Assembly: GCA_944386695.1 (NCBI GenBank)
Contig: CALXCB010000002.1
Span: 12,322 to 76,321, forward strand
Direction of reading: 5' to 3'
DNA: 64,000 nucleotides
DNA from: an uncultured Clostridia bacterium
GTDB taxonomy: Bacteria; Bacillota; Clostridia; TANB77; CAG-508
Below are positions 30,113 through 51,195 of this stretch, in pieces. How positions within the stretch are numbered: the first letter of the stretch is position 1; each line of letters opens with the position of its first letter. The notes below the pieces were generated by a model. The model did no database searches. It saw only the letters and a program-made list of their open reading frames with translations, and was not told where the DNA came from. A program made the position numbers and the translations under genes.

Positions 30113-30164
30113 TTTCTCATTGGGGACAGACCCTTTCGCAAAAGTGTCTGTCCCTTTTGCGAAA
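30113..30164. repeat. compound palindromic intergenic element, copy A (GGGACAGACCC / TTTCGCAAAAG arms), directly abutting the pyrK stop
   Basis: On the pyrK strand it reads TAA-TTTCGCAAAAG-GGACAGACAC-TTTTGCGAAA-GGGTCTGTCCCC-AATGAGAA. Same architecture as copies at 35291, 48284 and 51123. Confidence 0.7.
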
Positions 30165-30959
30165 TTAAAATTCAACATAAGTTGCATCAAATACTGGTCC
30201 TGCTTTACATACCCCAACATATTCTGGGTTCTCTGCTGGTGAACTTGCTATTTTTACAGAGCAACCTACACATACTCCCATTCCGCATCCCATTTTTTCT
30301 TCTAAAGATACTTGGCAAGGAATGTTTTTTTCTACCGCTAAGGCTTTTACAGCTCTTAACATTGGCAATGGACCACAAGCATAAATACTATCTATTTTTC
30401 CATTTTCAATATCTTCTTTTAAGAAATTAATGGCAAAACCATTTTTTCCATAACTTCCATCATCTGTTGCTAAACAAAGTTCATCTGATACTTGCTCAAA
30501 TTCTTTTTCTAATAACACAAAATCTTTATTTCTATAACCTAAATAGGTAGTTACATTTTTCCCATCTTTTTTTGCTTCTTTTGCAAGTTCATATAGTGGA
30601 AATACTCCTATTCCTCCCCCGATTATTGCTAAATTTTGATATTTAGAATAGTCAAATATACCAAATCCTAGAGGTCCTACTATATCAATATCATCTCCTA
30701 CTTGTTTTTGAGTAAGTAATTTAGTTCCTTTACCTTTTACTTGGAATATAAATTCTAGAATTCCTTTTTCTTTATCCATGTTGTATATACTAATTGGTCT
30801 TCTTAAAAATGGTTCAACTTGATCTGTTACTCTTATTTCTAAAAATTGACCTGGTTTGGCCTGGTCTGTGATTTCTTTTGCTGCTACACTAAATTTAAAA
30901 ATATCGTGTTTTAATTGGTTTACTTGTACTAATTTTGCTTGTATTTGCACTTTTGGCAT
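30165..30959 (-). CDS. pyrK: dihydroorotate dehydrogenase electron-transfer subunit
   Basis: 264 aa. FAD/NAD-binding ferredoxin-reductase fold. C-terminal 2Fe-2S Cys cluster CGMGVCVGC. Confidence 0.9.
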   Translation of the reverse strand: MPKVQIQAKLVQVNQLKHDIFKFSVAAKEITDQAKPGQFLEIRVTDQVEPFLRRPISIYNMDKEKGILEFIFQVKGKGTKLLTQKQVGDDIDIVGPLGFGIFDYSKYQNLAIIGGGIGVFPLYELAKEAKKDGKNVTTYLGYRNKDFVLLEKEFEQVSDELCLATDDGSYGKNGFAINFLKEDIENGKIDSIYACGPLPMLRAVKALAVEKNIPCQVSLEEKMGCGMGVCVGCSVKIASSPAENPEYVGVCKAGPVFDATYVEF

Positions 30960-30986
30960 GTTTTTTCCTCCTTTATTTTTATATTA

Positions 30987-31916
30987 TTATTGTATAGCTT
31001 GATTTAACTCATCTCTCATTCTTATTGCTTCTTGCCTTGTAGCTTCTGCATATTGCTCTTCTGTAAATTTATCTTTCCACATTTCAGCTTTATATGCTCC
31101 CATTAGACTTCTAGTAGCATTGACAATTCCTCCTAGTCCATTTTCATCAAATCCAAGTGCTATGTCTTCTGCTTTCCCACCTTGTGCTCCATAACCTGGA
31201 ATTAGGAAAAATGTATGTGGTGCTAATTTTCTTAATTCTTTTAGTTGTTCTGGGTAGGTTGCTCCTACTACTGCTGAAATACTACTATATCCATATTTTC
31301 CAATTAAGTCTTTGCCCCATTCTTCAACTAATGTTGCTACTTGTTCATAAACTTTTTTTCCATTTTCTAATTTTAAATCTTGAAGTTCTCCTGATGATTT
31401 ATTTGATGTCTTAACTAATATAAATGCTCCTTTATTATATTTTTTACAGTCTTCTATAAAAGGCTTTACACAATCCGTACCCATATAAGGATTTAATGTT
31501 ATAAAATCAACATCATATACACTTTCGTTTTTATCGTCTATCGGTGTTTTTCCTAAAAATGCATTTGAATAACCTTTAGATGTTGATCCTATATCACCTC
31601 TTTTTGCATCTGCCATCACTATCATGCCTTTTGATACTGCATAGTTCTTTACTTCTTGAAAAGCTTTTAATCCTTCCGGTCCTAACATTTCAAAATATGC
31701 CAGTTGTAATTTTACAGCTGGAATTATATCATATGTACTATCTATCAATGAATTACAAAATTCTACACTTGCTTTTGCATAGCCTGATAAATCTTTAGTA
31801 TATTTTGATTTTACACAGTTTGGTATAATTTCATAACGAGGATCCAATCCTATTACTGTTGGGTTGTTTGTTTGTTTTATTTTTTCTATTAGTCTATCCA
31901 TCATATTTTTTTTCAT
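30987..31916 (-). CDS. pyrF: orotidine-5'-phosphate decarboxylase (long, type-2 form)
   Basis: 309 aa. Resembles long-form OMP decarboxylases. Context pyrF-pyrK-pyrD. Confidence 0.8.
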   Translation of the reverse strand: MKKNMMDRLIEKIKQTNNPTVIGLDPRYEIIPNCVKSKYTKDLSGYAKASVEFCNSLIDSTYDIIPAVKLQLAYFEMLGPEGLKAFQEVKNYAVSKGMIVMADAKRGDIGSTSKGYSNAFLGKTPIDDKNESVYDVDFITLNPYMGTDCVKPFIEDCKKYNKGAFILVKTSNKSSGELQDLKLENGKKVYEQVATLVEEWGKDLIGKYGYSSISAVVGATYPEQLKELRKLAPHTFFLIPGYGAQGGKAEDIALGFDENGLGGIVNATRSLMGAYKAEMWKDKFTEEQYAEATRQEAIRMRDELNQAIQ

Positions 31917-32102
31917 CTTTCCAACTTCCTCTCTTTTTATTTTTCGACGTTATTGTATCATAAAATAATATAATATGCAATGAACAAAAAATTTAATTTT
32001 TTCAATATAAATTAAGAGAGTAACCTATAAATGAACTGTTACTTTAAATGTGAACAGGTCATATAGGAACCCTCTTAAAAATAGATTTGTTCAATTTTTA
32101 CT

Positions 32103-32381
32103 TTAACTCACTTCTTTTATTATGTCTAATTTAGTTTGAGTTTCTATGTCCATAACTAATTCTTTTGATTTTGCTAATTTTATTAAATAATCTAATTTAG
32201 CTTGATTAGCCTTTATATTATATGAATAATAATCAATTAACTCGTCTTCTGCAAATTCAAAATTTTTATGAGCTTGTTTCAAATTTTCCCTTGTTTTTAA
32301 AATGCTTTGAATTAATTCATTATTTTTTTCTTCTTCATTTTTCTCTGTAATACTAGTCTCTTTATAATATTCTTCTTCCAT
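32103..32381 (-). CDS. hypothetical protein, possibly DUF2508/YaaL-like
   Basis: 92-aa charged helical ORF. Weak resemblance only. Confidence 0.4.
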   Translation of the reverse strand: MEEEYYKETSITEKNEEEKNNELIQSILKTRENLKQAHKNFEFAEDELIDYYSYNIKANQAKLDYLIKLAKSKELVMDIETQTKLDIIKEVS

Positions 32382-32483
32382 GAATTCACCTACCTTTTTA
32401 CTACTAATATATTCAAATTTAGTAATTTTATTCCGTCATGGTTATTATTTACAGTTATTTCAGAATTATAACTCTTTTGTTCC

Positions 32484-32888
32484 AATTCATAACTCAGAGA
32501 AGGAGGACTGGATGAAAACTTCAGCCAACCCGTTAGATTGAAATGAAATATAGAATTTCTTAATATAGAAAATGAGGAATGTTCACGCACGAAAATTATA
32601 TATTTATATTTTTTTAGAAATTTCTCGGTTCAATACGTGCTTTAGCCATTCTAAATATAAAATAAACGAGCCTCTCGCTACATACTTCGCGCTTCCTCAT
32701 TTACTTTATATTAAGAATGGCTACAAGCACTTCAATCACATTCATAATTTCTAAAAAAATATAAATATATAATTTCACGAAGCTGAGTGAAAGAGGCGCA
32801 TTTTCTATATTTAGAAATTCTTATTGAATGTAATGATAAGGGTTGGCTGAAGTTTTCATCCAGTCCTCCTTCTCTGAGTTATGAATTG
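32484..32888. repeat. ~405-bp imperfect palindrome with perfect 43-bp termini (ATAACTCAGAGAAGGAGGACTGGATGAAAACTTCAGCCAACCC and its reverse complement) and nested internal inverted repeats. Centre of symmetry ~32685
   Basis: Left arm 32489-32531 is the exact reverse complement of right arm 32840-32882. Inner blocks (e.g. AGAAATTTCT...AAAAAAATATAAATATATAATT) also pair with some divergence. No credible ORF inside. Confidence 0.7.
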
Positions 32889-32908
32889 TAACACTTTTTT
32901 GACATTTT

Positions 32909-32943
32909 TTGTTTTTTATCTTATTAAATGCTTGATATATCTA
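32909..32943 (+). promoter_or_regulatory. putative serS promoter (-35 TTGACA, 17-nt spacer, -10 TATTAA)
   Basis: Consensus -35 box with a reasonable -10 box about 50 nt upstream of the serS RBS. No T-box element detected. Confidence 0.35.
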
Positions 32944-32992
32944 GATAAATACTATATAATAACAAATATTAAAAGAAAGGACGGGTATAATT

Positions 32993-34276
32993 ATGATAGA
33001 TATAAAATTTTTAAGAGAACATCCAGATATTGTAAAAGAAAATATCAAGAAAAAATTTCAAGATCAAAAATTGATATTGGTTGATGAAGTACTTGATTTA
33101 GATAAAAAATATCGTGAGTCTAAATTAAATGGTGACAATTTACGTAGTGAAAGAAAATCTTTAAGTAATCAAATTGGTAATTTAATGAAATCTGGAGAAA
33201 AACTTCAAGCTGAAGAAATAAAGCAAAAAGTTCAAGAACTTAATGAAAGATTAGAGAAAAATGAAGTTTTAGAAGATGAACTTGCTGAAGAAATTAATTC
33301 TAGAATGATGAAAATTCCAAATATTATCCATGAATCTGTTCCAATTGGAGAAGACGATAGTAAAAATGTGGAAATACAAAAATTTGGAGATCCTGTTGTC
33401 CCTGATTATGAAATTCCTTATCATGGAGAAATTATGGAATCTTTGGGTGGATTAGATCTAGATAGTGCACGCCGTGTTTCAGGTCAAGGTTTTTATTATT
33501 TGATTGGAGATATTGCAAGACTTCATTCTGCAGTTCTTACATATGCAAGAGATTTTATGATTAATAAAGGATTTACTTATTGCATTCCTCCTTATATGAT
33601 TCGTTCAAATGTTGTAACTGGTGTTATGAGTTTTGAAGAGATGGATGCTATGATGTACAAAATTGAAGGTGAAGATCTATATTTAATTGGTACTTCTGAA
33701 CATTCTATGATTGGTAAATTTAAAGATCAAATTTTAGATAAATCTAAAATGCCTTATACTATGACTTCTTACTCTCCTTGTTTTAGAAAAGAAAAAGGTG
33801 CTCATGGTATAGAAGAACGTGGTGTTTACCGTATACATCAATTTGAAAAACAAGAAATGATCGTTGTTTGTGAGCCTGAGGATAGCTGGAATTGGTATGA
33901 TAAAATGTGGTCATATACTGTTGAATTTTTTAGAAGTATGAATATTCCTGTTAGAACTCTTGAATGTTGTAGTGGAGATTTAGCAGATCTTAAAGCAAAG
34001 TCTTGTGATGTTGAGGCTTGGTCTCCTCGTCAAAAGAAATACTTTGAAGTTGGAAGTTGCTCTAACTTAACAGATGCTCAAGCTCGTAGACTTGGTATTA
34101 GAATTAAAGGTGAAAAAGAAAATTATTTTGCACATACTTTAAATAATACTGTTGTTGCTCCACCAAGAATGCTTATAGCTATTATGGAAAACAACTATCA
34201 ACCTGATGGAAGTGTTATTATTCCAGAAGTTCTTAGACCTTATATGGGCGGTTTAGGCAAAATTTGTAAAAAATAA
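32993..34276 (+). CDS. serS: serine--tRNA ligase
   Basis: 427 aa. N-terminal coiled-coil arm. Class II motifs (FRKE, GAHGIEERGVYRIHQFEK). Confidence 0.95.
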   Translation: MIDIKFLREHPDIVKENIKKKFQDQKLILVDEVLDLDKKYRESKLNGDNLRSERKSLSNQIGNLMKSGEKLQAEEIKQKVQELNERLEKNEVLEDELAEEINSRMMKIPNIIHESVPIGEDDSKNVEIQKFGDPVVPDYEIPYHGEIMESLGGLDLDSARRVSGQGFYYLIGDIARLHSAVLTYARDFMINKGFTYCIPPYMIRSNVVTGVMSFEEMDAMMYKIEGEDLYLIGTSEHSMIGKFKDQILDKSKMPYTMTSYSPCFRKEKGAHGIEERGVYRIHQFEKQEMIVVCEPEDSWNWYDKMWSYTVEFFRSMNIPVRTLECCSGDLADLKAKSCDVEAWSPRQKKYFEVGSCSNLTDAQARRLGIRIKGEKENYFAHTLNNTVVAPPRMLIAIMENNYQPDGSVIIPEVLRPYMGGLGKICKK

Positions 34277-34337
34277 CATTTTATGATAAAATAATATTGT
34301 AACTTGTAAATCAAGCAATCTTGAAAGGAGGATGCGA

Positions 34338-34637
34338 ATGCATTACCTCGAAAAACAGTATAAGGAGTTGTGCGAAAACTTTTATATTTGCTCTAAAAAT
34401 GTTGAGAGCAAATCAGAAATCGTACGGACTCCTAATGGCGGCCAGATGATTTCTGCCAATTGCCTACTTGACGGAGTTGATCAGAAAGGTAACCCGTTTA
34501 AGTTGGACTTGCTTGAAAAATCCAACATAGCATATGTTGGAAAGCCGGGAACTGCTGAGGCAGGAGTCATCTATCCAGATGACCAGTTACTGGATGCTAT
34601 CGGCAAGGTAGATCCTAAAAACTTACCTCCTCCTTAA
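34338..34637 (+). CDS. hypothetical protein, 99 aa, in a compositionally atypical (~40% GC) islet
   Basis: RBS AAAGGAGG upstream. Much higher GC than the ~27% background. Flanked by two hairpins/terminators. No family recognised. Confidence 0.5.
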   Translation: MHYLEKQYKELCENFYICSKNVESKSEIVRTPNGGQMISANCLLDGVDQKGNPFKLDLLEKSNIAYVGKPGTAEAGVIYPDDQLLDAIGKVDPKNLPPP

Positions 34638-34651
34638 GGAGGTTTTCGGCT

Positions 34652-34690
34652 GAAGGTAACTCCGCAAGGAGTTACCTTTATTGATTTATT
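34652..34690 (+). terminator. rho-independent terminator (AAGGTAACTCC GCAA GGAGTTACCTT + T-run)
   Basis: 11-bp perfect stem followed by a TTTATTGATTTATTTT tail. A second hairpin CCTCCTTAAGGAGG overlaps the stop codon. Confidence 0.6.
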
Positions 34691-34708
34691 TTGAAAGGAA
34701 TTTTAATT

Positions 34709-35290
34709 ATGATAGTTAAAAACCCACAATTTGAAATATCGGCAGTTAGCCCTAATCAATATCCGAAAAATGATTTACCAGAAATTGTTTTAGTTGGAAA
34801 ATCAAATGTTGGAAAATCAAGTTTTATAAATACAATGATAAATAGAAAACGTTTAGCTCGTACAAGTTCAGAGCCTGGTAAAACTAGACAAATTAATTTT
34901 TATAATATTGATGAAAAATTTTATTTTGTAGACCTTCCTGGATACGGCTATAGTAAAATGTCTAAGACAGAACAAGCAAAAGTTGGTAATTTTATAGAAG
35001 AATATTTATTTCATAGAGACAAAATTTCTCTAATTATATTTTTAATAGATATAAGGCATTCTCCAACAGCTAATGATAAACTTATGTACAATTATATTAT
35101 CAGTTCTAAAAGACCTTTTATCATTTTAGCTAACAAGGCTGATAAAATTGCACCTACTAAAGTAGCAGGCACAACAAAATCTTTACAAAAAGAAATAAAT
35201 CCTTTAATGGATTCTATAATGCTTCCATTTTCTTCTGAAAAGAAAATTTATTCAGATGATGTATGGGATATTATAGAAAAATACATTTAA
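34709..35290 (+). CDS. engB: ribosome-biogenesis GTP-binding protein YihA/YsxC (EngB)
   Basis: G1 GKSNVGKSS, G3 DLPGYG, G4 NKADK. Start taken at the ATG after GAAAGGA (the ORF track uses an upstream TTG). Confidence 0.9.
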   Translation: MIVKNPQFEISAVSPNQYPKNDLPEIVLVGKSNVGKSSFINTMINRKRLARTSSEPGKTRQINFYNIDEKFYFVDLPGYGYSKMSKTEQAKVGNFIEEYLFHRDKISLIIFLIDIRHSPTANDKLMYNYIISSKRPFIILANKADKIAPTKVAGTTKSLQKEINPLMDSIMLPFSSEKKIYSDDVWDIIEKYI

Positions 35291-35380
35291 TTTCGCAAAA
35301 GGGACAGACCCTTTTGCGAAAGGGTCTGTCCTCAATGAGAAAAATTTTTCAAAAGGGTCTGTCCCCAATGAGAAATTTTT
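35291..35380. repeat. compound palindromic element, copy B, abutting the engB stop and overlapping the last 10 codons and stop of uvrB
   Basis: TAA-TTTCGCAAAAG-GGACAGACCC-TTTTGCGAAA-GGGTCTGTCC-TCAATGAGAAAAATTTTTCAAAAG-GGTCTGTCCCC-AATGAGAAATTTTT. Confidence 0.7.
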
Positions 35381-37347
35381 CTAATTCTTTTATTTTATCT
35401 CTTAATTCTGCTGCCTTTTCAAATTCCATTTTACTTGCATATTCTAACATTTCATCTGTTAATCTATTTATTGTAGCTTTTATATCTTCACCATTTTCAT
35501 TTTTAAATTCTACTTCTATGTCTTCAGTTTGTACTGCCCTTATAGCATCTCTTACAGATTTGTTTATAGTTTTAGGTATGATTCCATTTTTTTCGTTATA
35601 TTCAGTTTGAATTTTACGTCTTCTATTTGTTTCTGATATAGCTTTTTCCATAGATTCTGTTAATTCATCTGCATACATTATAACTGTCCCATCTGTATTT
35701 CTAGCCGCTCTTCCTATTGTTTGAATTAATGAACGTTCTGAACGTAAAAATCCTTCTTTATCTGCATCTAATATTGCAACTAATGATACCTCTGGAATAT
35801 CTAATCCTTCTCTTAATAAATTGATTCCTACTAAAACATCAAATTCTCCTAACCTTAAATTTCTTATTATTTCCATTCTTTCTAATGCTTTTGTATCTGA
35901 ATGCATGTAATTTACTTTTACATCTAAACTTTTTAAATATTCTGTTAAATCTTCTGCCATCTTTTTTGTCAATGTTGTAACTAGAACTCTTTCTTTTTTG
36001 GCTACCCTTATTCTTATTTGCTCTAATAAATCGTCAACTTGATTTGTTACTGGTTTTACTTCAATTTTAGGATCTAAAAGTCCTGTTGGTCTTATTATTT
36101 GTTCTACGACATTTTCCTTACTATGTTCTTTTTCATATTCAGCAGGTGTTGCACTTACAAAAACCACTTGATTAATTCTTTCCTCAAATTCATTAAATTT
36201 AAGTGGTCTATTATCATATGCTGATGGAAGTCTAAAACCATATTTTACAAGTGAATCTTTTCTGGATTTGTCTCCATTATACATTGCTCTTACTTGTGGA
36301 ATTGTAGCATGTGATTCGTCAATTAATAGCAAAAAATCTTTTGGAAAGTAATCAAATAATGTATATGGTGGCGAACCTGCAGGCCTACCACTCATATGTC
36401 TTGAGTAATTTTCGATTCCTTGACAAAATCCTGTTTCTTTCATCATCTCTATATCAAAATTTGTTCTTTCTTCTATACGTTGAGCTTCTATTAACTTGTT
36501 TTGCGATTTAAAATACTGTATTCTCTCTTCTAGTTCTTCTTCTATTGTTACAATTGCTCTTTCCATTTTATCTTTACTTGTTACATATTGTGAAGCTGGT
36601 GGTATTAGAACATGGGTTCTAGTACCTATGGGTTTTCCTGTTAGTGGATTTATCTCAGATATTTTTTCTATTTCATCTCCCCAAAACTCCACTCTTATTG
36701 CCGCTTCACTTTGTGATGATGGGTAAATCTCTAAGATATCTCCTTTAGCTCTAAATGTTCCTCTTTTAAAATCTATTTCATTTCTGGAATATTGCATTGT
36801 TACTAGTTTTTTCATTATAGAATCTCTTGATTTTTCTTGACCTGGTCTTATAGATAACATCATTTCTTGATAATCTATAGGGTCTCCTAATCCATATATG
36901 CAAGATACTGAAGCAACAACTATTACATCTCTTGTCTCAAACAAAGATAGTGTTGCTGAATGGCGAAGTTTATCTATTTCGTCATTTATTGAAGCATCTT
37001 TTTCTATATAAGTATCAGAGCTCGCTATATAACTTTCTGGTTGGTAGTAATCATAATATGACACAAAATATTCAACTCTATTTTCTGGAAAAAACTCTTT
37101 AAATTCTGAATATAATTGTCCAGCTAAAGTTTTATTATGTGCTAAGACAAGAGTTGGTTTTTGTACCTTCTCTATTATATTTGCCATTGTAAATGTTTTT
37201 CCGAGAGCCTGTAACTCCTAGAAGTGTTTGATATTTCTTGCCTTGTTTTATTCCATTTGATAGATATTCTATTGCTTGTGGCTGATCTCCTGTTGGCTTA
37301 TATTCTGAATGTAATTTAAACATTCTTTGCCTCCTAACTTTTTTCAT
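35349..37347 (-). pseudogene. uvrB: excinuclease ABC subunit B, split by a +1 frameshift at ~37201-37204 (TCTCGGA where TCT GGA is expected, inside the Walker A GVTGSGKT)
   Basis: A 70-aa N-terminal ORF (..LLGVTGS) plus a 612-aa ORF starting ..[11 protein letters not shown]. Removing one C gives a continuous UvrB. The C-terminal codons ..LIGDRPF* come from repeat element B. Confidence 0.85.
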
Positions 37348-37358
37348 ATAATAGACAT

Positions 37359-39865: not shown

Positions 39866-42800
39866 CTAAATTTTAATTTCTTTTCCCAGAAAAGTAGAAT
39901 AAATATATACTTTATCTACTTTTCTATTTAATCCATTCTCTAATGCTTCTTTATATAGCATCAATTGTGCTTTATGCCTTTCAACTAAAATTTGTTCTCC
40001 ACTGGCACCGAATGGACCGGTTCTTTTTGACACCGAGGAACCAAAAAGAACCGGTCCATTTGGTGCATTTGGTGCCAAAAAATCTGTTTTATAATCTAGA
40101 AGTATTAATTCATCATTTTTGTTTATATAATATAAATCTATAATTCCTTGCACTAATATATTTTCATCTTCAGTTGTTTCCATTACATCTTTAGCGGGTA
40201 TATTAATATAAAAAGGCTCTTCTTTATGATATTCTTTTGCTTCTTTTAATTCTTGCCATATATTAGATTGTGTGAATTTTAATATAACATATGGATTAAT
40301 TGCCTCTAGCCCTTTTTGTGTTATCATTTCTCTGGCTTTTAAATCTTCTATAAGATTTTTTATATCTTGCAAATTATAGTCTTTTCCAAATTCTAAATTT
40401 TTCATACATAAATGTACTAGTGTTCCTCTCTGAGCTGGTGTTATTTTTTCTTCTTCTGTTCCAACTAAAAATTTTGGTTTTGGAAACTCTAACATTTCTA
40501 TCTCTTTTTCTTTCTTATCCTCGTCATTATCCACATTATCCGTTTTTTTGTTTTCATTATTTAATTCTTCTATTTCTTCTAAATCGTCTCTTTCACTAAT
40601 TGTTTCTGTTTCATCTTCCAATTTTAGCGAGTACTTTATTTCTTTAATATTTTTATGAACGATATTTGTTACAGATTCTTTTGTTGGTATTTTTATCAAA
40701 TCTTTGTATGGATATTCAAATACCAATTGATTTTTTAATTTTATAATTTCTTCTTCTTTTATATTTTTAGAATTTTCTTCTAATAGTTTGAATATATCTA
40801 TATCTTGTTTTTCCTCTTCTTTTATACCTTTTAATATGTCTTGTCCTTTTAAAACATTTATTTCCATAATGTTTTTTGATTGTTCTGGATTATATAAAAA
40901 TGTGAGTAAAATCCAATCTATATATTTTTTGTATTTTTTTAATAAATTTGAATTTATTTTTCCATTTTCTAGTTTGTATATGTCCACTAATTCCTTCATT
41001 TTTTCTTTTTCTTTATTAGAATCTTTTTTTATACCTGTGATATAAATTTTCTCTTTTGCCCTAGTTAAAGCAACATACAATATACGCATTTCTTCTGCTA
41101 AATTTTCTTCTAGTAACTTTTCTCTTAATGCTAATTTAGTAATTGTATCATATTTTATTTGCTTGTCATAATCGATATATTTCACGCCTATTCCAAGATC
41201 TTGATGTAATAAAATATCATTATTTAAGTCTTGCATATTGAAATTAGAACCTGTGCCTACTAAAAATACAATTGGAAATTCTAGTCCTTTGCTTTTGTGA
41301 ATACTCATTATTCTTACTACATTTTCATTTTCTCCTATTAGTTTTGCAGCTCCTAAATCTCCACTTCCTAATTTTATTTTTTCTATGAAATTAATAAAGT
41401 TGAATAATCCCTTAAATGTCGCACTTTCATATTGCTTTGCTCTTTCAAAAAGCATTTTTAGGTTTGCTACTCTTAAGTTTCCATTTGGCATTAGAGCTAC
41501 ATAATTTAAAAATCCCGTTTTTTCATATATTGTCCAAATTAGTTCGTCCAAATCTAGAATTTGATTTTTTTGGCGAAAATCTTCTAATTTTTCTAAGAAA
41601 TTTTCTATTTTTTCTTTTAATTCTTCTCTTACAGAAAGTTTAGATTTTAACATAGCTGTGTAAAAATCATCTTGATCATCACATAATCTTATTTCTAGTA
41701 AGTCATCATTTGTAAACATACCTATACTTGATAACATAATATGAACTAGCGGTATATCTTGGTATGGATTATCTATAATCTTTAATAAGTCCATAATTAT
41801 TTGTATTTCATAAGATTCTAGATATTCTGATGAGGTATCTGAATATACATCGATATTTTGCAAAGTAAGTTCTTTTTCAAAAATATTTGCTTTATTTTTA
41901 GTTGAACGAAGTAATATTACTATATCTTTACATTCAATTTTACGAAATTTTTCTTTTTTGTTATCATAAACTTGAAAACTACTATCTAACAAGTCACGTA
42001 TTTTTTTTGCTACAAATTTAGCTTCTAGTTCTATATCTTCTAATTTTTCCTGTTCTTCTTGATCTTCTTCTAAGCTATCATTTTGAATGTTACTTTGTAT
42101 CTCACTTTCCTCTAACTTCTCTTCATCCTCTAGTGGGTCTAATATATCTATTTCTGAAATCAAGTTTTCTTTACTTTCTGGATATGCTGCACCTAAATTC
42201 AAATATTCTTCTTCTGTATATTCTATCTCTCCTAGTTCTTTTCCCATTATACTTTCAAAGATCATATTTGTAATTTCAAGTACATTTTCTCTACTTCTAA
42301 AATTTTTAAAAAGTTTGATTTTTAAGCCTTTTTCATTTGCTGTGTTTTCACTATAATTTTGATATTTATTTAAAAATAAATCTGGCATTGCTTGTCTAAA
42401 TTTATAAATACTTTGCTTGACATCTCCTACCATAAAAATATTATTTCCTTTTGATATTGATGTTAATATATATTCTTGTACTAAGTTACTATCTTGATAT
42501 TCATCTATTGCTATTTCTGCAAATTTTTCTTGATATTTTTTTGCAATATCAGAACTTTCTATTTTTTCATCATTTTCTTTTATTAGTATTTCAAGTGCTA
42601 AATGTTCAATGTCACTAAAATCTACTATGTTTTTTTCTTTTTTGCTTTTTTTGAATTTTTCATCAAAATCAAGGATTATTCTTTTTAATTTTACTAATAT
42701 TTCATACATTTCCTGTAAATCTATATTTGCTTGCTCTGAATTTGATATGAAGATTTTATCTCTTTTATCAGTAAAATTCTTTTTTACTTTGTCTCTTATT

Positions 42801-43702
42801 TTTTTTGCATTATCTTTTTCTGGATTTGTTATTTTTCTAGATGATGGCCATTTTAAAAATTCTACTTGATTGGCTAAAAGATATGCTTTATCCCAATTTT
42901 CTAGATTTCCCAAAACCATTTCTAATTGTTGTATATCAGATGTTAGTATTTTTTCATATGATTCTAATTCTTTATCTACTGATAATCTTCTTTCTTCAGA
43001 TTTTAGCTTTTTTATGTTATCTTCTAGTTCTTCTTTCATGCTTTCTAATAAAATCTTTCCCCAAACTGTTTTCGAGAAGTCTTGTTTGATATCTTTAATA
43101 TTGAATTTTTCTATTTGGGTATCTAACCATTTTAAAGGAAATGGGTTTGATTCAATGTATGTGTATATTTTTAATATTAAGTCTTTTAGTGGAGTATCAT
43201 CTCTATAAGATGTATAGGTTTTTATTAATTTTTCAAAATCAGCATCATGATTTTCGTATTTTTCTTCGAAAAGTGTTTCTAATACTTCTTGTTTTTGTAG
43301 ATCTATTTCAGCAGTGTCAGCAATTCTGAAGTTCGGCGAAATTTCTATTTCGAAAAAATTATTTCTTATTACATCTAAACAGAATGAATCTATTGTGCAT
43401 ATACTTGCTTTATTTAATAATGTAATTTGTCTTTGCAAATGATTTATAGTTTCTTCATCTTGCTCTTCTTCATTATCTATTATTTTATATATTGCAGTTA
43501 AAATTCTTTCTCTCATTTCAGATGCTGCTGCATTGGTAAATGTTACGACTAAAAGTTTGTCTATATCTATTTTTTCTTTTATTATTTTATTGATAATTCT
43601 TTCAACAAGTACTGCTGTTTTTCCACTTCCTGCTGCTGCTGCAACTAAAATGTTGCTACCTTTTTCATATATTGCTTGAGATTGCTCCTTTGTCCAATTC
43701 AT
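39866..43702 (-). CDS. addA: ATP-dependent helicase/nuclease subunit A (AddA/RexA)
   Basis: 1278 aa. UvrD-like helicase N-terminus (AAAGSGKT). C-terminal RecB-family nuclease motif IDLYYI...LLDYKTD. No addB upstream. Confidence 0.9.
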   Translation of the reverse strand: MNWTKEQSQAIYEKGSNILVAAAAGSGKTAVLVERIINKIIKEKIDIDKLLVVTFTNAAASEMRERILTAIYKIIDNEEEQDEETINHLQRQITLLNKASICTIDSFCLDVIRNNFFEIEISPNFRIADTAEIDLQKQEVLETLFEEKYENHDADFEKLIKTYTSYRDDTPLKDLILKIYTYIESNPFPLKWLDTQIEKFNIKDIKQDFSKTVWGKILLESMKEELEDNIKKLKSEERRLSVDKELESYEKILTSDIQQLEMVLGNLENWDKAYLLANQVEFLKWPSSRKITNPEKDNAKKIRDKVKKNFTDKRDKIFISNSEQANIDLQEMYEILVKLKRIILDFDEKFKKSKKEKNIVDFSDIEHLALEILIKENDEKIESSDIAKKYQEKFAEIAIDEYQDSNLVQEYILTSISKGNNIFMVGDVKQSIYKFRQAMPDLFLNKYQNYSENTANEKGLKIKLFKNFRSRENVLEITNMIFESIMGKELGEIEYTEEEYLNLGAAYPESKENLISEIDILDPLEDEEKLEESEIQSNIQNDSLEEDQEEQEKLEDIELEAKFVAKKIRDLLDSSFQVYDNKKEKFRKIECKDIVILLRSTKNKANIFEKELTLQNIDVYSDTSSEYLESYEIQIIMDLLKIIDNPYQDIPLVHIMLSSIGMFTNDDLLEIRLCDDQDDFYTAMLKSKLSVREELKEKIENFLEKLEDFRQKNQILDLDELIWTIYEKTGFLNYVALMPNGNLRVANLKMLFERAKQYESATFKGLFNFINFIEKIKLGSGDLGAAKLIGENENVVRIMSIHKSKGLEFPIVFLVGTGSNFNMQDLNNDILLHQDLGIGVKYIDYDKQIKYDTITKLALREKLLEENLAEEMRILYVALTRAKEKIYITGIKKDSNKEKEKMKELVDIYKLENGKINSNLLKKYKKYIDWILLTFLYNPEQSKNIMEINVLKGQDILKGIKEEEKQDIDIFKLLEENSKNIKEEEIIKLKNQLVFEYPYKDLIKIPTKESVTNIVHKNIKEIKYSLKLEDETETISERDDLEEIEELNNENKKTDNVDNDEDKKEKEIEMLEFPKPKFLVGTEEEKITPAQRGTLVHLCMKNLEFGKDYNLQDIKNLIEDLKAREMITQKGLEAINPYVILKFTQSNIWQELKEAKEYHKEEPFYINIPAKDVMETTEDENILVQGIIDLYYINKNDELILLDYKTDFLAPNAPNGPVLFGSSVSKRTGPFGASGEQILVERHKAQLMLYKEALENGLNRKVDKVYIYSTFLGKEIKI

Positions 43703-43705
43703 AAA

Positions 43706-45162: not shown

Positions 45163-45201
45163 TAATAAAAAAAACGTTATCGCTTTTACACGATAACGCC
45201 C
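45163..45201 (-). terminator. rho-independent terminator (CGTTATCG...CGATAACG stem plus a U8 tail on the minus strand)
   Basis: 8-bp stem with an A8 run on the plus strand. Lies downstream of the small membrane-protein gene. Confidence 0.6.
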
Positions 45202-45221
45202 TTCTTTAACTTTTTTGCCAA

Positions 45222-45434: not shown

Positions 45435-45515
45435 TCTCTTCCTCCTTTCTTTTGTTATGCTTTTGTCAACAAGTTACCCTTTTTATTATAACATTTTACA
45501 CCTTAAAAATCAAAT

Positions 45516-45544
45516 TTGATTTATTTTACATAAAATGATATAAT
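45516..45544 (+). promoter_or_regulatory. sigma70-like promoter (-35 TTGATT, 17-nt spacer, -10 TATAAT) for the 270-aa ORF
   Basis: Consensus hexamers upstream of RBS AAAGGAGGTG and the ATG at 45595. Confidence 0.45.
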
Positions 45545-45594
45545 AATAGTGTAGTTATAAACTTTGCTGAACAAAAGAAAGGAGGTGCCTTACT

Positions 45595-46407: not shown

Positions 46408-46423
46408 GAGTTCCAGTGAAAGG

Positions 46424-46466
46424 AACAACCACGGCAGATCTATTCCAACGTGGTTGATTCCTTTTT
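46424..46466 (+). terminator. rho-independent terminator (CAACCACG...CGTGGTTG + TTCCTTTTTTGTTTTT)
   Basis: 8-bp stem followed by a T-rich tract right after the 270-aa ORF, between convergent genes. Confidence 0.6.
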
Positions 46467-46471
46467 TGTTT

Positions 46472-48259
46472 TTATACCCCATTCAAAATTCTTTCAGCTA
46501 ACTCCCTATTAACACCTTTAACCTCCATTAACTCTTCTATACTTGCCTTTTTAATCTTCTCAACACTTCCAAACCTCTTAAGCAAAGCCTTTTTCTTTGC
46601 ATCACCAATACCTTTAATACCATCAAGTTCAGATTTAGTTAACTCTTTATCTCTAAGCTTTCTATGGTAAGTAATTGCTGTATCATGTACAGTATCTTGA
46701 AATAAAGTAATCAAATTAAATAAATTCTCTGAAATTTCAATTTCATTTCTTTCTTCATCCATCAAAGCTCTAGTCTGATGCTTATCATTTTTTACCATTC
46801 CAAAAATTTTAATATCCACACCAAATTTATCAACAGCTCTTCTAACTGCTCTAATTTGTGTAATACCACCATCTGCAAATATAGCATCTGGTAATCTTCC
46901 AAAACCTTTATCTTGTGGATTCTCTACCGAATGAGCTAATCTTCTAGTTATAACCTCTTCCATACATCTAGGGTCATCTTGACCCAAAACCGTTTTAATT
47001 TTAAATCTTCTAGACAAATTCTTTTTAATCACTCCATCTTCCATAACGCACATAGCTGCTACCATAAATTCTCCTGATATATTAGATATATCATAAGTCT
47101 CTATCTTTCTTGGTAATTTGTCCATCTTCAATTTATCTTTCAACTCTAGTAAAATAGCATTTTGTGTTTTCTCTTTATTATCTAATGTTACTTTACTATT
47201 TTTTTCAGCCATTTCTACAAACCTTAATTTTCCACCTCTTTTAGTACTATGTATAACCACTTTATGCGTAGTTTTGCTACTTAGCCATTCTTCTAATGCC
47301 TTTTCATCTTCCAACTCTTCTCTTATCATTATTTTATTTGGAATATTTAAATTATCCATATAATATTGTTTAATAAATCCAGATATAATCTCTTTATCTT
47401 CCATATCACCAAGATTATCAAAAAAATAATGCTCTCTTCCTATCATTTTACTACCACGAACAAAAAATATTTCTATACAAACCTCTAATTCTGACTTTGC
47501 CATACCTATTACATCAATATTATTTTCTGAAATATTAGAAACTTTCTGTTTTTGAGATGCTGTTTCAATTGCCATCATTCTATCTCTTATGTAAGCCGCT
47601 TCTTCAAAATTAAGTTTCTCTGATGCTTCTTTCATTTGATGTTTTAAATCTTTCAAGATTTTATCAGTCTTGCCTTCTAATAAGTCTATTATTTCATCAA
47701 TTTGTTTTCTATAATCTTCTTTACTTATATTCCCTATACAAGGAGCCAAACATCTTTTAATATGGTAATTTAAACAAGCTCTTGTATTAGATTTAAAATT
47801 TCTACATTGCCTTATTTTATATTTTTGTTTTATAAAATTAACCATTTCCTTTGCAGCTCCAGGATTTGCATAAGGTCCAAAATACTTTGAACCGTCATTT
47901 ATTACTCTTCTTGTTATGACAACATTTGGAAAATCAGACTTAACATCAATTTTTATATAAGGATATGTTTTATCATCTTTTAATAAAACATTATATTTAG
48001 GTCTATTCTTCTTTATCAAATTACATTCCAAAATTAATGCTTCTGCCTCATTACTAACTACAATATATTCAAAATGGTCTATCAAAGAAACCATTTTTAA
48101 GATTCTATCTGTCTTATTTGTTTTCCTAAAATAAGAACTAACTCTATTTTTCAAATTAACCGCTTTGCCAACATAGATAATATTATCATCTTTATCTTTC
48201 ATCAAGTAAACACCAGGCTCTTTGGGCAACTTTTTAAGTTCTTCTTTTATATCAAACAT
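46472..48259 (-). CDS. uvrC: excinuclease ABC subunit C
   Basis: 595 aa. N-terminal GIY-YIG (GVYLMKDKDDNIIYVGKA). UvrBC-binding domain. RNaseH-like and HhH domains. Confidence 0.95.
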   Translation of the reverse strand: MFDIKEELKKLPKEPGVYLMKDKDDNIIYVGKAVNLKNRVSSYFRKTNKTDRILKMVSLIDHFEYIVVSNEAEALILECNLIKKNRPKYNVLLKDDKTYPYIKIDVKSDFPNVVITRRVINDGSKYFGPYANPGAAKEMVNFIKQKYKIRQCRNFKSNTRACLNYHIKRCLAPCIGNISKEDYRKQIDEIIDLLEGKTDKILKDLKHQMKEASEKLNFEEAAYIRDRMMAIETASQKQKVSNISENNIDVIGMAKSELEVCIEIFFVRGSKMIGREHYFFDNLGDMEDKEIISGFIKQYYMDNLNIPNKIMIREELEDEKALEEWLSSKTTHKVVIHSTKRGGKLRFVEMAEKNSKVTLDNKEKTQNAILLELKDKLKMDKLPRKIETYDISNISGEFMVAAMCVMEDGVIKKNLSRRFKIKTVLGQDDPRCMEEVITRRLAHSVENPQDKGFGRLPDAIFADGGITQIRAVRRAVDKFGVDIKIFGMVKNDKHQTRALMDEERNEIEISENLFNLITLFQDTVHDTAITYHRKLRDKELTKSELDGIKGIGDAKKKALLKRFGSVEKIKKASIEELMEVKGVNRELAERILNGV

Positions 48260-48283
48260 ACTTGCTCCTTTACATAATATTTT

Positions 48284-48355
48284 TCATTAGGGTCGTTTCT
48301 TTTTGCAAAAGGAAACGACCCTTTTGCAAAAAGAAACGACCCCAATGAGAAAAAA
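48284..48355. repeat. compound palindromic element, copy C (GGAAACGACCC-type arms), between the hpt stop and the uvrC start
   Basis: CATTAG-GGTCGTTTC-TTTTTGCAAAAG-GAAACGACCC-TTTTGCAAAAA-GAAACGACCCC-AATGAGAAAAAATTA. Confidence 0.7.
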
Positions 48356-48880
48356 TTAATCTATTTTTCCTATATATGGTAAATTTCTATATTTTTGATT
48401 ATAATCCATTCCAAATCCAATCACAAATTCATCTGGTATTTGAAATCCGATATAATCCACATCAAGTTCTACCACCCTTCTTGATGGCTTACTTAATAAT
48501 GCACAAATTTTTATACTTTTTGGATTTTGTTTACTAATATAATCTTTCAAATATTCTAAGGTTCTTCCTGTATCAATTATATCTTCAATTATTATTATAT
48601 TTTTACCTTCTATTTTTCCTGTTAAATCTTGTGTTAACTTTATAGTACCTGTACTTTCTTCTCCTTCATAACTCTCAACTTGTATAAATTCAAACTCCAC
48701 ATTGTTTTTTATTCTTTTTGCAAGTTCTACCATAAATATTGCTGCTCCTTTTAGAACTCCTATAAATACTAGATCTTCATCCTTATAGTCTCTCATTATA
48801 TTTTTAGCTAATTCATCTAATCTGTTTTGAATCTTTGACTCGCTTATTAAGATATTTACTTTTTCCATTTTTATTTTCAT
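48356..48880 (-). CDS. hpt: hypoxanthine phosphoribosyltransferase
   Basis: PRPP-binding motif IIIIEDIIDTGRT. Start taken at MKIKMEKVN with RBS AGGAAAGGA (the ORF track uses an upstream TTG). Confidence 0.9.
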   Translation of the reverse strand: MKIKMEKVNILISESKIQNRLDELAKNIMRDYKDEDLVFIGVLKGAAIFMVELAKRIKNNVEFEFIQVESYEGEESTGTIKLTQDLTGKIEGKNIIIIEDIIDTGRTLEYLKDYISKQNPKSIKICALLSKPSRRVVELDVDYIGFQIPDEFVIGFGMDYNQKYRNLPYIGKID

Positions 48881-48908
48881 TCCTTTCCTAAGGCACAAAT
48901 CCAGTCGA
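48881..48908 (-). promoter_or_regulatory. conserved 5' leader motif, copy 2 (CGACTGGATTTGTGCCTTAGGAAAGGAATGAAAAT) at the hpt start
   Basis: Shares ~30/40 positions with the murG and PLP-gene leaders. Confidence 0.35.
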
Positions 48909-49015
48909 AAAAATTTAATATAATTTTTTCAAACCAATCCCTTTTATTAATATTAATATTATAACAACTTTTACGCGATTTGGAAATAAGTTTTGTGATT
49001 TTTTTATGAAAATAC

Positions 49016-49042
49016 TTGAAACATTTTTTACATTGTTATAAT
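49016..49042 (+). promoter_or_regulatory. putative glmS promoter (-35 TTGAAA, extended -10 TGTTATAAT)
   Basis: Hexamers about 45 nt upstream of the ribozyme core. Confidence 0.4.
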
Positions 49043-49087
49043 ATACTATAAGAAATTGGAAGTAAAAAAATTTTAAGAAAGGAGTTT

Positions 49088-49235
49088 TTTAGCGCCAGGA
49101 CATATGTATCTATGTTGACGAGGTCTAAGGTTATCGAAAGATTCGGCGGATGCCTTAGTGGTACGTACTTTACCATAGACTTAATCAAAAAATAATGGTG
49201 ACATTATAACAAATGTTAAGTCAAAGTAATACTTT
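49088..49235 (+). ncRNA. glmS ribozyme: glmS ribozyme (GlcN6P-responsive self-cleaving riboswitch) in the glmS 5' leader
   Basis: Conserved core segments AGCGCCAGGAC, GACGAGG, UUAUCGAA, UUCGGCGGAUGCC in the correct order upstream of glmS. Confidence 0.8.
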
Positions 49236-49271
49236 CAATTCCCAAAAATTTATTTAAAAGGAGAAATTTTT

Positions 49272-51122
49272 ATGTGCGGAATTGTTGGATATATAGGATC
49301 TCAAAAAGCTAGTCCTATACTTTTAGCTGGACTTTCAAAATTAGAATACAGAGGTTATGACTCTGCAGGAATTGCAACTATCGAAGGGAATGTCTTAAAA
49401 GTTGTTAAAAATAAAGGTCGTGTTGAAAGTCTTTATAATTTAGATGATACAAAAAAATTAGAAGGATCTATTGGTATTGCTCACACTAGATGGGCAACTC
49501 ACGGAATACCTTCAAAAATAAATTCTCATCCTCATTTAGATAATTCAAACTCTTTTGCTGTTGTTCATAATGGAATTATTGAGAATTATATTGAAATTAG
49601 AAAATTTTTAGAAAAAGAAGGTTATCATTTTATATCTGATACAGATACGGAAATTATACCTAACTTAATTAGTTACTTTTATAATAAAGATACTAAAAAT
49701 GATGATTTAAAAATTTTAAGAGCTGTAAAAAATACTTGTGATAAATTAATCGGAAGCTTTTCTTTAGAAATATTATCTTTATATATGCCTGATAATATGA
49801 TTGTTGTAAGAAAAGATAGCCCTTTGGTTATAGGTAAAGGAAATGGTGAAAGCTATATTGCTTCTGATATACCTGCTATTTTAAGTTATACTAAAGATTT
49901 TTATTTATTAGAAAATTTTGAATATGCTCTTTTGTCTAGAGATTCAATTAAGTTTTATGATAATGATTTAAAAGAATTCGAAAAGAAATCTACTACAATC
50001 ACTTGGGATGCTATGGCTGCTGATAAATCTGGCTTTGAAGATTATATGCTAAAAGAAATTATGGAGCAACCTACTGCTGTTAGAGAAACAATCGGTTCAA
50101 GATTAGATGATATTTATTGTAATTTTGATGAACTTTCTTTTACTAAAGAGTATTTAAGTTCTTTGAAACAAATTTATATAATTGCTTGCGGTACAGCTAT
50201 GCATGCAAGTTTAGGTGTAAAAGATACAATTGAACATTTATGTAAAATTCACACTGAAATTGCTGTGGCTTCTGAATTTAGATATCGCAACCCTCTTATA
50301 GATGAAACAACTTTATGTATTTTTGTTAGTCAATCAGGTGAAACAGCTGATACTTTAGCTGCATTAAAACTTTCAAAAGAACATAAAGCAAAAACTATAT
50401 CTATAACAAATGTTATTGGTAGTTCTATTGCAAGAGAATCTGATTTTGCACTTTATACTCATGCTGGTCCTGAAATTGCTGTAGCTTCTACTAAAGCATA
50501 TACTTCTCAAATAACTTTACTTACTTTACTTGCTATGTATTTTGCTGAAATTTTAGAAACTACTTCTACTGAGGAATTAGAAAAACTAAAATTAGATTTA
50601 CTTGCTTTACCAAATAAAGTTGAAACATCTTTAAAATTAACATCTCAAGCTAAAAACATTGCTAAAAATATATTTAAAGAAAAAGATGTATTTTATCTTG
50701 GTAGAGGCATAGATTATGCTACAGCCTTAGAAGCTTCTTTAAAATTAAAAGAAATTTCTTATATTCATTCTGAAGCTTATTCTGCTGGTGAATTAAAACA
50801 CGGAACCATTGCATTAATTGAAAAAGGCATTAATGTAATTGGCATAATGACAGATGAAAATTTATTAAAGAAAACTGTAAGTAATATAGAAGAACTTATA
50901 ACTAGAGGCGCTGTAACCACTGTTGTAGTTTCAGAAACAACTTCTAAACAGATTGACCATTCAATCTTTGATAATGTAATTGTTGTTCCTGATACAAATA
51001 TTTATTTATCACCCATTGTTACAGTTGTTCCTTTACAACTTCTTGCTTATTATGTATCTAAAGAAAAAGGATTGGATGTTGATAAGCCTAGAAATCTTGC
51101 TAAGTCTGTCACAGTTGAATAA
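49272..51122 (+). CDS. glmS: glutamine--fructose-6-phosphate aminotransferase (isomerising)
   Basis: 616 aa. N-terminal MCGIVGY Ntn-amidotransferase. Two SIS domains. C-terminus ends with ...KSVTVE. Confidence 0.95.
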   Translation: MCGIVGYIGSQKASPILLAGLSKLEYRGYDSAGIATIEGNVLKVVKNKGRVESLYNLDDTKKLEGSIGIAHTRWATHGIPSKINSHPHLDNSNSFAVVHNGIIENYIEIRKFLEKEGYHFISDTDTEIIPNLISYFYNKDTKNDDLKILRAVKNTCDKLIGSFSLEILSLYMPDNMIVVRKDSPLVIGKGNGESYIASDIPAILSYTKDFYLLENFEYALLSRDSIKFYDNDLKEFEKKSTTITWDAMAADKSGFEDYMLKEIMEQPTAVRETIGSRLDDIYCNFDELSFTKEYLSSLKQIYIIACGTAMHASLGVKDTIEHLCKIHTEIAVASEFRYRNPLIDETTLCIFVSQSGETADTLAALKLSKEHKAKTISITNVIGSSIARESDFALYTHAGPEIAVASTKAYTSQITLLTLLAMYFAEILETTSTEELEKLKLDLLALPNKVETSLKLTSQAKNIAKNIFKEKDVFYLGRGIDYATALEASLKLKEISYIHSEAYSAGELKHGTIALIEKGINVIGIMTDENLLKKTVSNIEELITRGAVTTVVVSETTSKQIDHSIFDNVIVVPDTNIYLSPIVTVVPLQLLAYYVSKEKGLDVDKPRNLAKSVTVE

Positions 51123-51195
51123 TTTTTCAAAAGGGTCGTTTCCTTTCGCGAAAGGAAACGACCCTTTTGCAAAAAGAAACGACCCCAATGAAAAA
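51123..51195. repeat. compound palindromic element, copy D, between the convergent glmS stop and the PLP-enzyme gene stop
   Basis: TAA-TTTTTCAAAAG-GGTCGTTTCC-TTTCGCGAAA-GGAAACGACCC-TTTTGCAAAAA-GAAACGACCCC-AATGAAAAATC. Confidence 0.7.

Follow-up and report, generated by a model that had tools for sequence, protein, structure and literature searches.

The stretch of DNA analysed here, referred to throughout as the window, comprises 64,000 nt of contig CALXCB010000002.1 (positions 12,322 to 76,321) from an uncultured Clostridia bacterium. Its genes include pyrK, pyrD, engB/YsxC, uvrB, addA, hpt, uvrC and glmS, names that NCBIfam confirms, and among them lie four compound palindromes, c1 to c4, which an initial annotation of the sequence had placed exactly at stop codons. 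Reading of the sequence finds all four at, or within a few bases of, the positions first reported. These four palindromes are copies of a dispersed repeat family of the REP (repetitive extragenic palindrome) and BIME (bacterial interspersed mosaic element) type in uncultured low-GC gut Clostridia. More specifically, with a probability of roughly 0.8, we regard them as a REP/REPIN-type family with a BIME-like mosaic that goes with a long, 'TIRYT'-type REP-associated tyrosine (Y1/HUH) transposase (RAYT) in this lineage. They are a known kind of miniature mobile DNA (REP/REPIN-RAYT, TIRtron), now found in uncultured gut Clostridia, and not a new class of RNA.

Placement at stop codons is borne out for all four genes concerned. 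The stop codons of pyrK (TTA, 30165-30167), engB (TAA, 35288-35290) and glmS (TAA, 51120-51122) exactly abut c1, c2 and c4, respectively, and that of hpt (TTA, 48356-48358) abuts c3, with three extra A of the run between the stop and the end of the model. At its other end c4 touches the TGA (51196-51198) of a convergent 417-aa gene resembling pyridoxal phosphate (PLP) enzymes, and it fills the entire gap between the two genes; the uvrB stop codon lies inside c2. The elements had been assigned to gene 3' ends or to the space between convergent genes. The latter describes c2 and c4, but c1, between the pyrK stop and the ribosome-binding site (RBS) and start (30088) of pyrD, and c3, between hpt and uvrC, separate co-directional genes.

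In the window and in relatives alike, the elements are built as a mosaic with a strict 21-nt period. An 11-nt core X (GGGAC.G..CC) or its complement X', in alternating orientation, is combined with a linker, L2 (TTTYGCRAAA), which is itself palindromic, and with a cap, L1 (TTTCTCATTG), a T-run followed by CTCATTG whose reverse complement L1' reads CAATGAG plus an A-run. The basic element, L1-X-L2-X'-L1', spans 52 nt and is perfectly palindromic, with a stem of 24 bp; in the common compound form, L1-X-L2-X-L2-X'-L1', the palindrome extends to 73 nt and the stem to 33-34 bp, the centre of the middle core forming the loop. The architecture first proposed, a stop codon followed by Y, X, Y', X' and a tail, fits c1 and c2, which are 52-nt units with L2 on the stop-codon side, but not c3 and c4, which carry three cores (L1/L2-X-L2-X'-L2-X'-L1') in 73-nt palindromes, c3 in the compound form proper and c4 with its left L1 replaced by L2. 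Two boundaries also needed revision: c3 starts at 48279/48280 instead of 48284, and c2 has an extra partial unit (Table 1). Cores of type A (GGGACAGACCC) occur in c1 and c2 and those of type B (GGGTCGTTTCC) in c3 and c4; their differences are all compensated, as annotated, but when oriented by L1 they number five positions and not three. The arms are indeed complementary (inverted repeat I1 between c1 and c2, 59 nt, 97%; internal palindrome I7 of c3, 33-nt arms, 94%), though not all are perfect, with imperfect arms in c1 (GTGTCTGTCCC), c2 (...GTCCT) and c3 (...TTTCT). Linkers L1/L2 and cores X/X' at a 21-nt period, in simple and compound forms, make up a BIME-style organisation, a likeness of organisation and not of sequence.

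The core pattern GGGWCNKWYCC occurs nine times in the window against 0.20 expected (none of 100 shuffles reached nine) and TTTYGCRAAA 10 times against 0.96; the tail motif by itself, found five times against 2.97 expected, was not significant. A repeat search joined all four loci as direct and inverted repeats, c3 and c4 being linked by inverted repeats I4 and I6 and 92% identical over 74 nt. A covariance model, R1, built from 12 simple elements of several genomes and run unfiltered on the window, returned the four known loci at 48-60 bits, with c4 as the top match, together with three weaker relatives, and it finds approximately 40 distinct copies in the relatives' loci. The predicted RNA folds of the four loci are far more stable than those of shuffled sequences (z -4.6 to -13.6). 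Among 27 distinct 52-nt units, 94.3% of the cells are paired, with double-sided changes at 12 of the 24 pairs; slid controls are 40-66% paired and none of 500 shuffles reached the covariation score. The pairing covariation is thus real. It is, however, no proof of the selection on RNA structure that had been read from it, because Y1 transposases need hairpins in single-stranded DNA and because orthologous sites change all their cores in concert. As to the proposed structured RNA family, no Rfam family matches the elements, only the glmS ribozyme and a tRNA reaching the gathering score in the window, and an Rfam scan by E-value gave the elements only spurious miRNA-hairpin matches far below threshold.

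The pattern scan covered one genome per species, the window's own genome lying outside that collection, and the comparison loci were conspecific contigs (98-99% nucleotide identity) and further relatives. At least 25 loci were found in the metagenome-assembled genome (MAG) 'uncultured Clostridia bacterium E40__bin214' (E40 hereafter; GC ~0.30), whose UvrB is 94% identical to that of the window, and further low-GC Clostridia MAGs, recovered from the gut of goats, rabbits and humans, contain copies as well, every genome having a compensated core variant of its own. Exact look-ups of the EngB, GlmS and UvrB proteins of the window returned no record. High-GC scan matches (e.g. L005, L006, L020, L022, L023, L026, L027, L035, L037 and L038) came without the palindrome and were set aside as chance. 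Viral contigs scanned for the element pattern gave no match, and hence no hint that phages carry it.

A motif scan of all open reading frames (ORFs) in the fetched loci revealed repeat-flanked, Y1/HUH transposase-like ORFs with the H-hydrophobic-H motif in E40 locus L001 and in L103, L113 and L114, associated with A/B cores. In E40 L001 the ORF encodes 255 aa; one simple type-A element immediately precedes its RBS and a second lies 6 nt past its stop. In L103, L113 and L114 the homologous gene lies between compound elements, the upstream flank in L114 carrying exactly the type-B cores of the window (GGGTCGTTTCC...AGAAACGACCCCAATG). The gene stands between hisS and mutS2 in four of the five relatives of this clade that were examined. 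This holds in E40 L001, L113 and L114, where mutS2 is convergent; in L103 mutS2 is again downstream, but the upstream ORF encodes 1427 aa and is not hisS. A tandem hisS-transposase-hisS-transposase arrangement was seen in L115 (ERZ28614519 scaffold_10576), representing either a locus duplication or an assembly artefact. Half-repeats surround a second homologue, in L053/55/57, L058 and L007: two in direct orientation lie upstream and two inverted copies downstream, all of sub-family C, which the window also contains at 21425 and 40004.

The assignment of these proteins draws on both profiles and structure. Scores for Pfam Y1_Tnp are 64, 48 and 38 bits, all above its gathering score of 23, and the top NCBIfam match, over the full profile length though below its curated cut-off, is NF047646 (REP-associated tyrosine transposase). 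No variation is seen in the motifs NH[IV]H and Y(I/V)HRNP. Searches of the PDB by sequence, with a single sequence or a profile, gave no match, and only a fold search succeeded: for an AlphaFold2 (AF2) model with a predicted local distance difference test (pLDDT) score of 90, the top Foldseek match in the PDB was 4ER8 (E 1.6e-7, template modelling (TM) score 0.71), a complex of the E. coli REP-associated tyrosine transposase with a REP hairpin, followed by the TnpA proteins of IS608 and ISDra2. The confident, helical C-terminal part of approximately 110 of the 255 aa has no Pfam helix-turn-helix (HTH) or Bac_DnaA_C match even at E<=5. The REP/BIME-like reading is now backed because the associated transposase has been found in sister genomes. 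Together with empty sites and the many copies in relatives, the repeats flanking this gene uphold the REP/BIME- or MITE-like (miniature inverted-repeat transposable element) identity first suggested.

Empty sites are indeed present in related genomes. In L047-L058, whose Hpt is ~80% identical, the hpt-uvrC junction reads hpt-TAA-AAGAAGGAGTCAAAG-ATG-uvrC, whereas both the window and E40 have an element there, and the addA site is empty in E40. The junction between glmS and the 417-aa gene exists in three states: an ordinary terminator of A-run, hairpin and T-run in E40, a transposase gene with repeats in the L053 type, and c4 in the window. The E40 terminator (L016 1838-1931; AGAGGAAAAAAATATCATTTTCAAAATGATATTTTTTTCCTCT), which separates glmS from the PLP-enzyme-like gene, is of the classical bidirectional kind. 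No relative examined has an empty uvrB/engB junction, and four variants fill it in the window, E40, L108 and L041; the main unit of c2 is kept in the conspecific contigs L110-L112. At the orthologous site, E40 L016 matches c3 in architecture and in its flanks, down to ATATTATGTAA-AGGAG, but its cores are of type A, all three differing from those of c3 at the same five positions. This change in concert argues for a concerted, family-level replacement, by gene conversion or re-insertion, rather than compensatory drift locus by locus. A TAA target-site duplication seemed visible at c3 (TAA ... TAA-AGGAG) and was rejected as a general feature, as other copies with the same flank module do not have it.

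Table 1. Elements and associated modules, with covariance model R1 scores and predicted folds
Feature	Position	Strand	Organisation and context	R1 (bits)	Fold
c1	30110-30164	-	minus (pyr mRNA) strand: L2(TTTCGCAAAA)-X(GGGACAGACAC)-L2(TTTTGCGAAA)-X'(GGGTCTGTCCC)-L1'(CAATGAGAAAAAA)	52.1	-23.4 kcal/mol on the minus strand (z -4.6); -24.9 kcal/mol on the plus strand (z -5.4)
c2, main unit	35291-35342	+	L2-X(GGGACAGACCC)-L2-X'(GGGTCTGTCCT)-L1', directly after the engB TAA	53 (c2)	
c2, extra partial unit	35345-35375	+	TTTTTCAAAA-GGGTCTGTCCC-CAATGAGAAA; minus strand encodes the last UvrB residues and the stop at 35349-35351		
c3	48279-48355	-	hpt-uvrC mRNA strand: TAA-T6CTCATTG-GGGTCGTTTCT-TTTTGCAAAA-GGGTCGTTTCC-TTTTGCAAAA-AGAAACGACCC-TAATGAAAAA; 73-nt compound palindrome plus run	51.7	-49.7 kcal/mol (z -13.6)
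c3 flank module, one-sided, with RBS	48260-48279	-	...ATATTATGTAA-AGGAG-CAAGT ahead of the uvrC ATG (48257-48259)		
Flank of 52-nt element			ATGTTATGTAA		
c4	51123-51195	+	TTTTTCAAAA-GGGTCGTTTCC-TTTCGCGAAA-GGAAACGACCC-TTTTGCAAAA-AGAAACGACCC-CAATGAAAAA; 73-nt compound	59.5	z -7.6 and -10.0
Degenerate copy	17226-17275		TTTTCTATTAGGGG...GAACTGTCCCTAATGATAAA	25.2 (E 0.002)	z -0.4
Sub-family C palindrome	21425-21485		perfect 26-bp arms (GACAAATGGGACTGGTTCTTTTTTGT), 22 nt downstream of the spoVT stop	34.8	-43.7 kcal/mol (z -11.4)
Sub-family C palindrome in addA	40004-40067	-	in-frame; APNAPNGPVLFGSSVSKRTGPFGASGE	30.3	

Three weaker copies complete the set in the window (Table 1). The degenerate one has lost its stable fold and lies at distance 0 from the TAA of a 94-aa ORF (17276-17560) that is a fragment of mraY. 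This mraY is apparently split (ORFs 17580-18257 and 17276-17560), and an FtsW/RodA-like ORF (16557-17210) looks truncated, with the degenerate copy in between. The core of the palindrome downstream of spoVT resembles the half-repeats around the transposase gene in L053 and L058. The flank module of c3 is found, as AAAAATRTTATGTAA, behind approximately 13 copies in relatives, and it follows the transposase gene in L103 and L114 as well. A mini-ORF in this module (ATG AAA AAT GTT ATG TAA) was dropped as a candidate since it is not conserved in every copy.

Some other features of the window were recorded alongside. A glmS ribozyme (49080-49232; Rfam RF00234, 86.9 bits) lies upstream of glmS, as expected in a Firmicute. 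At least 14 copies of an 18-nt tandem repeat (55584-55939) fall within a 939-aa ORF (55385-58204) and probably encode a repetitive surface or linker segment of the protein. At 32478-32893, between a DUF2508 gene and serS, a 308-bp segment is bounded by 54-nt inverted repeats (98% complementary); it has a 98.8% match in conspecific contig L112, in the opposite orientation relative to the flanks, and the window orientation in L110, and so looks like an invertible DNA switch.

The regularity of the 21-nt mosaic is unusual and the nearness of the elements to stop codons is striking. Of 89 element ends, 21 lie directly after a true stop (of an ORF of at least 80 aa) with the T-run alone in between, compared with a background of 0.35% for T-run starts in the same loci, and 29 of 45 copies have the stop of an ORF of at least 80 aa within 0-3 nt. 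Copies are found almost only between a stop codon and the next RBS, a few bases away, or between two convergent stops. Genes in the window are not packed extremely tightly: the median intergenic gap is 74.5 nt, and several gaps of 300-900 nt contain no copy. The stop-codon bias is therefore real.

Several elements reach into coding sequence. UvrB usually ends in ...KELEKL[LIVMT], and only the window group ends in the element-read FLIGDRPF; in E40 the protein ends in ...RFFFIGDRPFCKRVCPQ*, and further relatives have other element-coded tails. Likewise, the 417-aa protein ends in KAISML* where its relatives read on as KAIEFM.... In addA (39866-43702, minus strand) the palindromic insert adds approximately 20 residues right behind the DYKTD nuclease motif. 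It is missing from E40 and from most AddA homologues, partly deleted in close relatives, and variable in length among conspecific contigs, with a symmetrical shortening in L111; in L108 it breaks the frame. Separately, uvrB in the window is split (37190-37215, minus strand) by one extra C in the Walker A codons, GG(C/T) TC(T/A) C GGA AAA ACN TTT ACN ATG, and the same holds in L110-L112, L108, L028 and L041-L044. The extra base is kept across species while adjacent codons vary synonymously. Database UvrB homologues are mostly called as 606 aa starting with MANII, with an intact minority of 651-656 aa. Programmed +1 frameshifting at a rare CGG codon is one candidate explanation, a split gene that is tolerated the other.

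Among the known systems most like this one are the REPtrons, REP/REPIN repeats with their RAYT, of Proteobacteria such as E. coli and Pseudomonas (PMC2817692, PMC3116915, PMC3333891, PMC3479197). There, as here, many short palindromic repeats with species-specific sequence variants lie mostly extragenic and downstream of genes, the doublet (hairpin) is the likely unit, and a Y1/HUH transposase gene occupies a fixed chromosomal site between inverted repeat copies; the best PDB match of the Clostridia protein model is, moreover, an E. coli RAYT-REP complex. In contrast to REPtrons, the host is a low-GC Clostridia lineage, the elements have no GTAG tag and form a long perfect 24-34-bp hairpin instead of two separately palindromic REPs, and the transposase carries the extra helical C-terminal domain. 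GTAG occurs in no copy, and CGTC/TGTC only within the stem of some variants, not as the unpaired terminal tag defined in PMC3733652; a CGTC-type REP was ruled out on architecture.

The longer protein brings in a second comparison. TIRYT transposases and those of TnpA_REP subclass 2.1 are likewise longer Y1 enzymes with a C-terminal extension or extra domain (PMC6006769, Quentin et al. 2018), and TIRYT genes are flanked by terminal inverted repeats (TIRs) sharing GGGGWSAS (PMC3733652, Di Nocera et al. 2013), in TIRtrons whose repeats are dispersed as dimers or clusters, as here. The inverted-repeat ends of our elements read T-run-CTCATTGGGG ... CCCCAATGAG-A-run. In type A (TTGGGGACAGACCC) the stretch GGGGACAG fits the TIRtron motif exactly, whereas types B and C match it in part, type B (GGGGTCGT) and the relatives' GGGGACGG agreeing at 6-7 of 8 positions. 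Further differences are the C-terminal domain without an HTH match in Pfam and, compared with subclass 2.1, the abundance of repeats in a 21-nt modular mosaic. Clostridia do have Group 1 RAYTs, with which few repeats are associated (PMC5581495). No repeat family of this kind is reported for Clostridia in the main texts of PMC3733652, where 'Clostridi' appears 0 times, and PMC6006769, which names the class for subclass 1.1 only, and a literature search with the core sequences returned unrelated primers only.

In-frame palindromes that add peptide, as in addA and at the UvrB C-terminus, recall the Rickettsia palindromic elements (RPE) and the intragenic REPs in DNA-repair genes, which the 2013 survey found biased to uvr and recBCD genes (PMC3733652). 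Unlike RPE, the Clostridia elements are mostly extragenic, with one in-frame insertion and two 3'-end overlaps in 64 kb. The BIMEs of enterobacteria share alternating cores, a small set of conserved linkers and simple as well as compound forms, but their sequences are unrelated and the strict 21-nt period is found here; binding of integration host factor (IHF), gyrase or Pol I is characteristic of BIMEs, and the Clostridia elements are likened to them by sequence organisation alone. The Correia/NEMIS elements of Neisseria are transcribed inverted-repeat elements beside genes, 100-150 bp in size with a TA target duplication, whose long hairpins are cleaved by RNase III and alter mRNA stability. 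We know of no Y1 transposase associated with them; gene-adjacent inverted repeats able to form long hairpins are what they have in common with the Clostridia elements.

Judged from the sequence, the palindromes are probably mobile. In the mechanism we favour, the transposase would recognise the hairpins in single-stranded DNA and cut and rejoin them, and this step would copy or replace elements, leaving every genome with a single homogeneous core variant, or a few, with their arms still complementary. Where an insertion clips the 3' end of a gene, it gives rise to element-coded tails and stops, as in UvrB and the 417-aa gene, and now and then an in-frame insertion within a gene survives, as in addA. 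Transcribed elements would fold into very stable hairpins just past the stop codon and may act as 3' exonuclease barriers or processing sites, and in the orientation that sets TTTTGC after the last hairpin they are possibly weak terminators.

Several points weigh against this interpretation. The GTAG or CGTC tag of classical REPs is missing from the copies. NF047646 scores 58-63 bits with the transposase, under the cut-off of 80, and subclass 2.1 genes have been reported without nearby REP-like sequences (PMC6006769). The transposase gene was not found within the 64-kb window, so the link of the repeats to it rests on the sister genomes. Transposition and cleavage by this transposase subfamily are putative activities, and the RNA-level functions suggested for the elements are likewise presumed. 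In conspecific contig L110, c1 has three pair-breaking single-nucleotide polymorphisms (SNPs), which indicates that strong constraint does not extend to all individual copies. Finally, the stop-codon bias could stem from selection, target choice or function.

The last of these options leads to a tentative alternative, in which the primary role of the elements is that of a cis-acting RNA element at the stop codon, whether by blocking 3' exonucleases, by serving as an RNase III site or by stalling ribosomes at termination and so tuning expression, with the transposase merely supplying copies. A role as exonuclease barrier, RNase III site or stop-codon-proximal regulator is plausible given the very stable RNA folds, the strong enrichment right after true stops next to many long intergenic regions of the window without copies, and the uvrB/engB junction that is always filled. 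REPs downstream of ORFs, which may supply stop codons and occur inside uvr/recBCD genes, are also plausibly transcribed RNA elements (PMC3733652). The compound forms further show an orientation bias relative to transcription: in 9 of 10 copies between co-directional genes the last hairpin is followed by CAAUGA and the A-run and not by UUUUGC. Liang, Rudd and Deutscher in 2015 reportedly found that E. coli REPs within ~15 nt of a stop codon lower translation via ribosome stalling. Set against a primary RNA role, decay is seen in c1 of a conspecific strain and in the degenerate copy at 17226, sister-genome sites are empty or hold a normal terminator, and recognition of DNA hairpins would require pairing equally. 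The orientation bias, too, could reflect either avoidance of the terminator-like form inside operons or a replication-strand bias of single-strand transposition, and so could track replication direction.

A stronger version of the transposase-based reading strikes us as unlikely. It holds that the Y1 transposase, or selection on it, places hairpins specifically at stop codons, making this a 'stop-codon-homing' mobile element that routinely replaces classical terminators, rewrites protein C-termini and supplies stop codons; polar termination would fall to the hairpin-plus-TTTTGC orientation, and stabilisation under read-through to the opposite form.

It is more doubtful still that the elements are ordinary intrinsic, bidirectional terminators that resemble each other through functional convergence and vertical descent and not through mobility. 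The function of bidirectional terminator had been proposed in the initial annotation and appeals to the position of the elements at gene 3' ends and between convergent genes, to their strong hairpins and to the classical terminator that E40 has at the glmS junction where the window holds c4. At best the reading is partial. Among compound forms only some orientations look like a terminator, and in L2-ended forms a hairpin is set before TTTTGC (UUUUGC, four U), on both strands of c4, on the uvrB strand of c2 and on the antisense strand only of c1. The basic element, however, has its T-run 5' and its A-run 3' (ending in AAUGA and the A-run) on both strands, the reverse of an intrinsic terminator and of the normal polarity of the genuine terminators in the window (34651-34680 and 52580-52613), and a terminator scan of the window called no copy. 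Furthermore, c1, c3 and most copies in relatives lie in probable operons directly before an RBS, dozens of near-identical copies occur per genome, one sits in frame within addA, the hpt-uvrC and addA sites can be empty, and a Y1 transposase gene has the repeats on either side. Descent from a DDE-type insertion sequence as a classical MITE, with TIRs mobilised in trans and a target-site duplication, would account for the inverted-repeat ends, small size and dispersed, presence/absence-polymorphic copies, but is very improbable given that the flanks show no consistent target-site duplication, the whole element is a hairpin instead of TIRs around unrelated DNA, the sole associated gene is a Y1/HUH transposase flanked in REPtron/TIRtron style, and no DDE transposase with these ends was seen among the fetched loci.

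To conclude, REP/REPIN-RAYT systems have so far been studied almost entirely in Proteobacteria, and the long, C-terminally extended Y1 transposases (TIRYT, subclass 2.1) have mostly been reported without REP-like partners. The lineage described here would provide a clear case of such an enzyme paired with an abundant, modular repeat population. Copies of the repeat remodel gene ends, as seen at the end of UvrB, at the C-terminus encoded by the 417-aa gene and in the addA insert, and they also occupy terminator positions. For annotation, the family accounts for C-terminal extensions that look aberrant and for spurious short ORFs in these MAGs, and it offers a marker for strain typing. For REPIN biology, many metagenomic strains are at hand in which concerted variant turnover and extreme proximity to stop codons can be followed.

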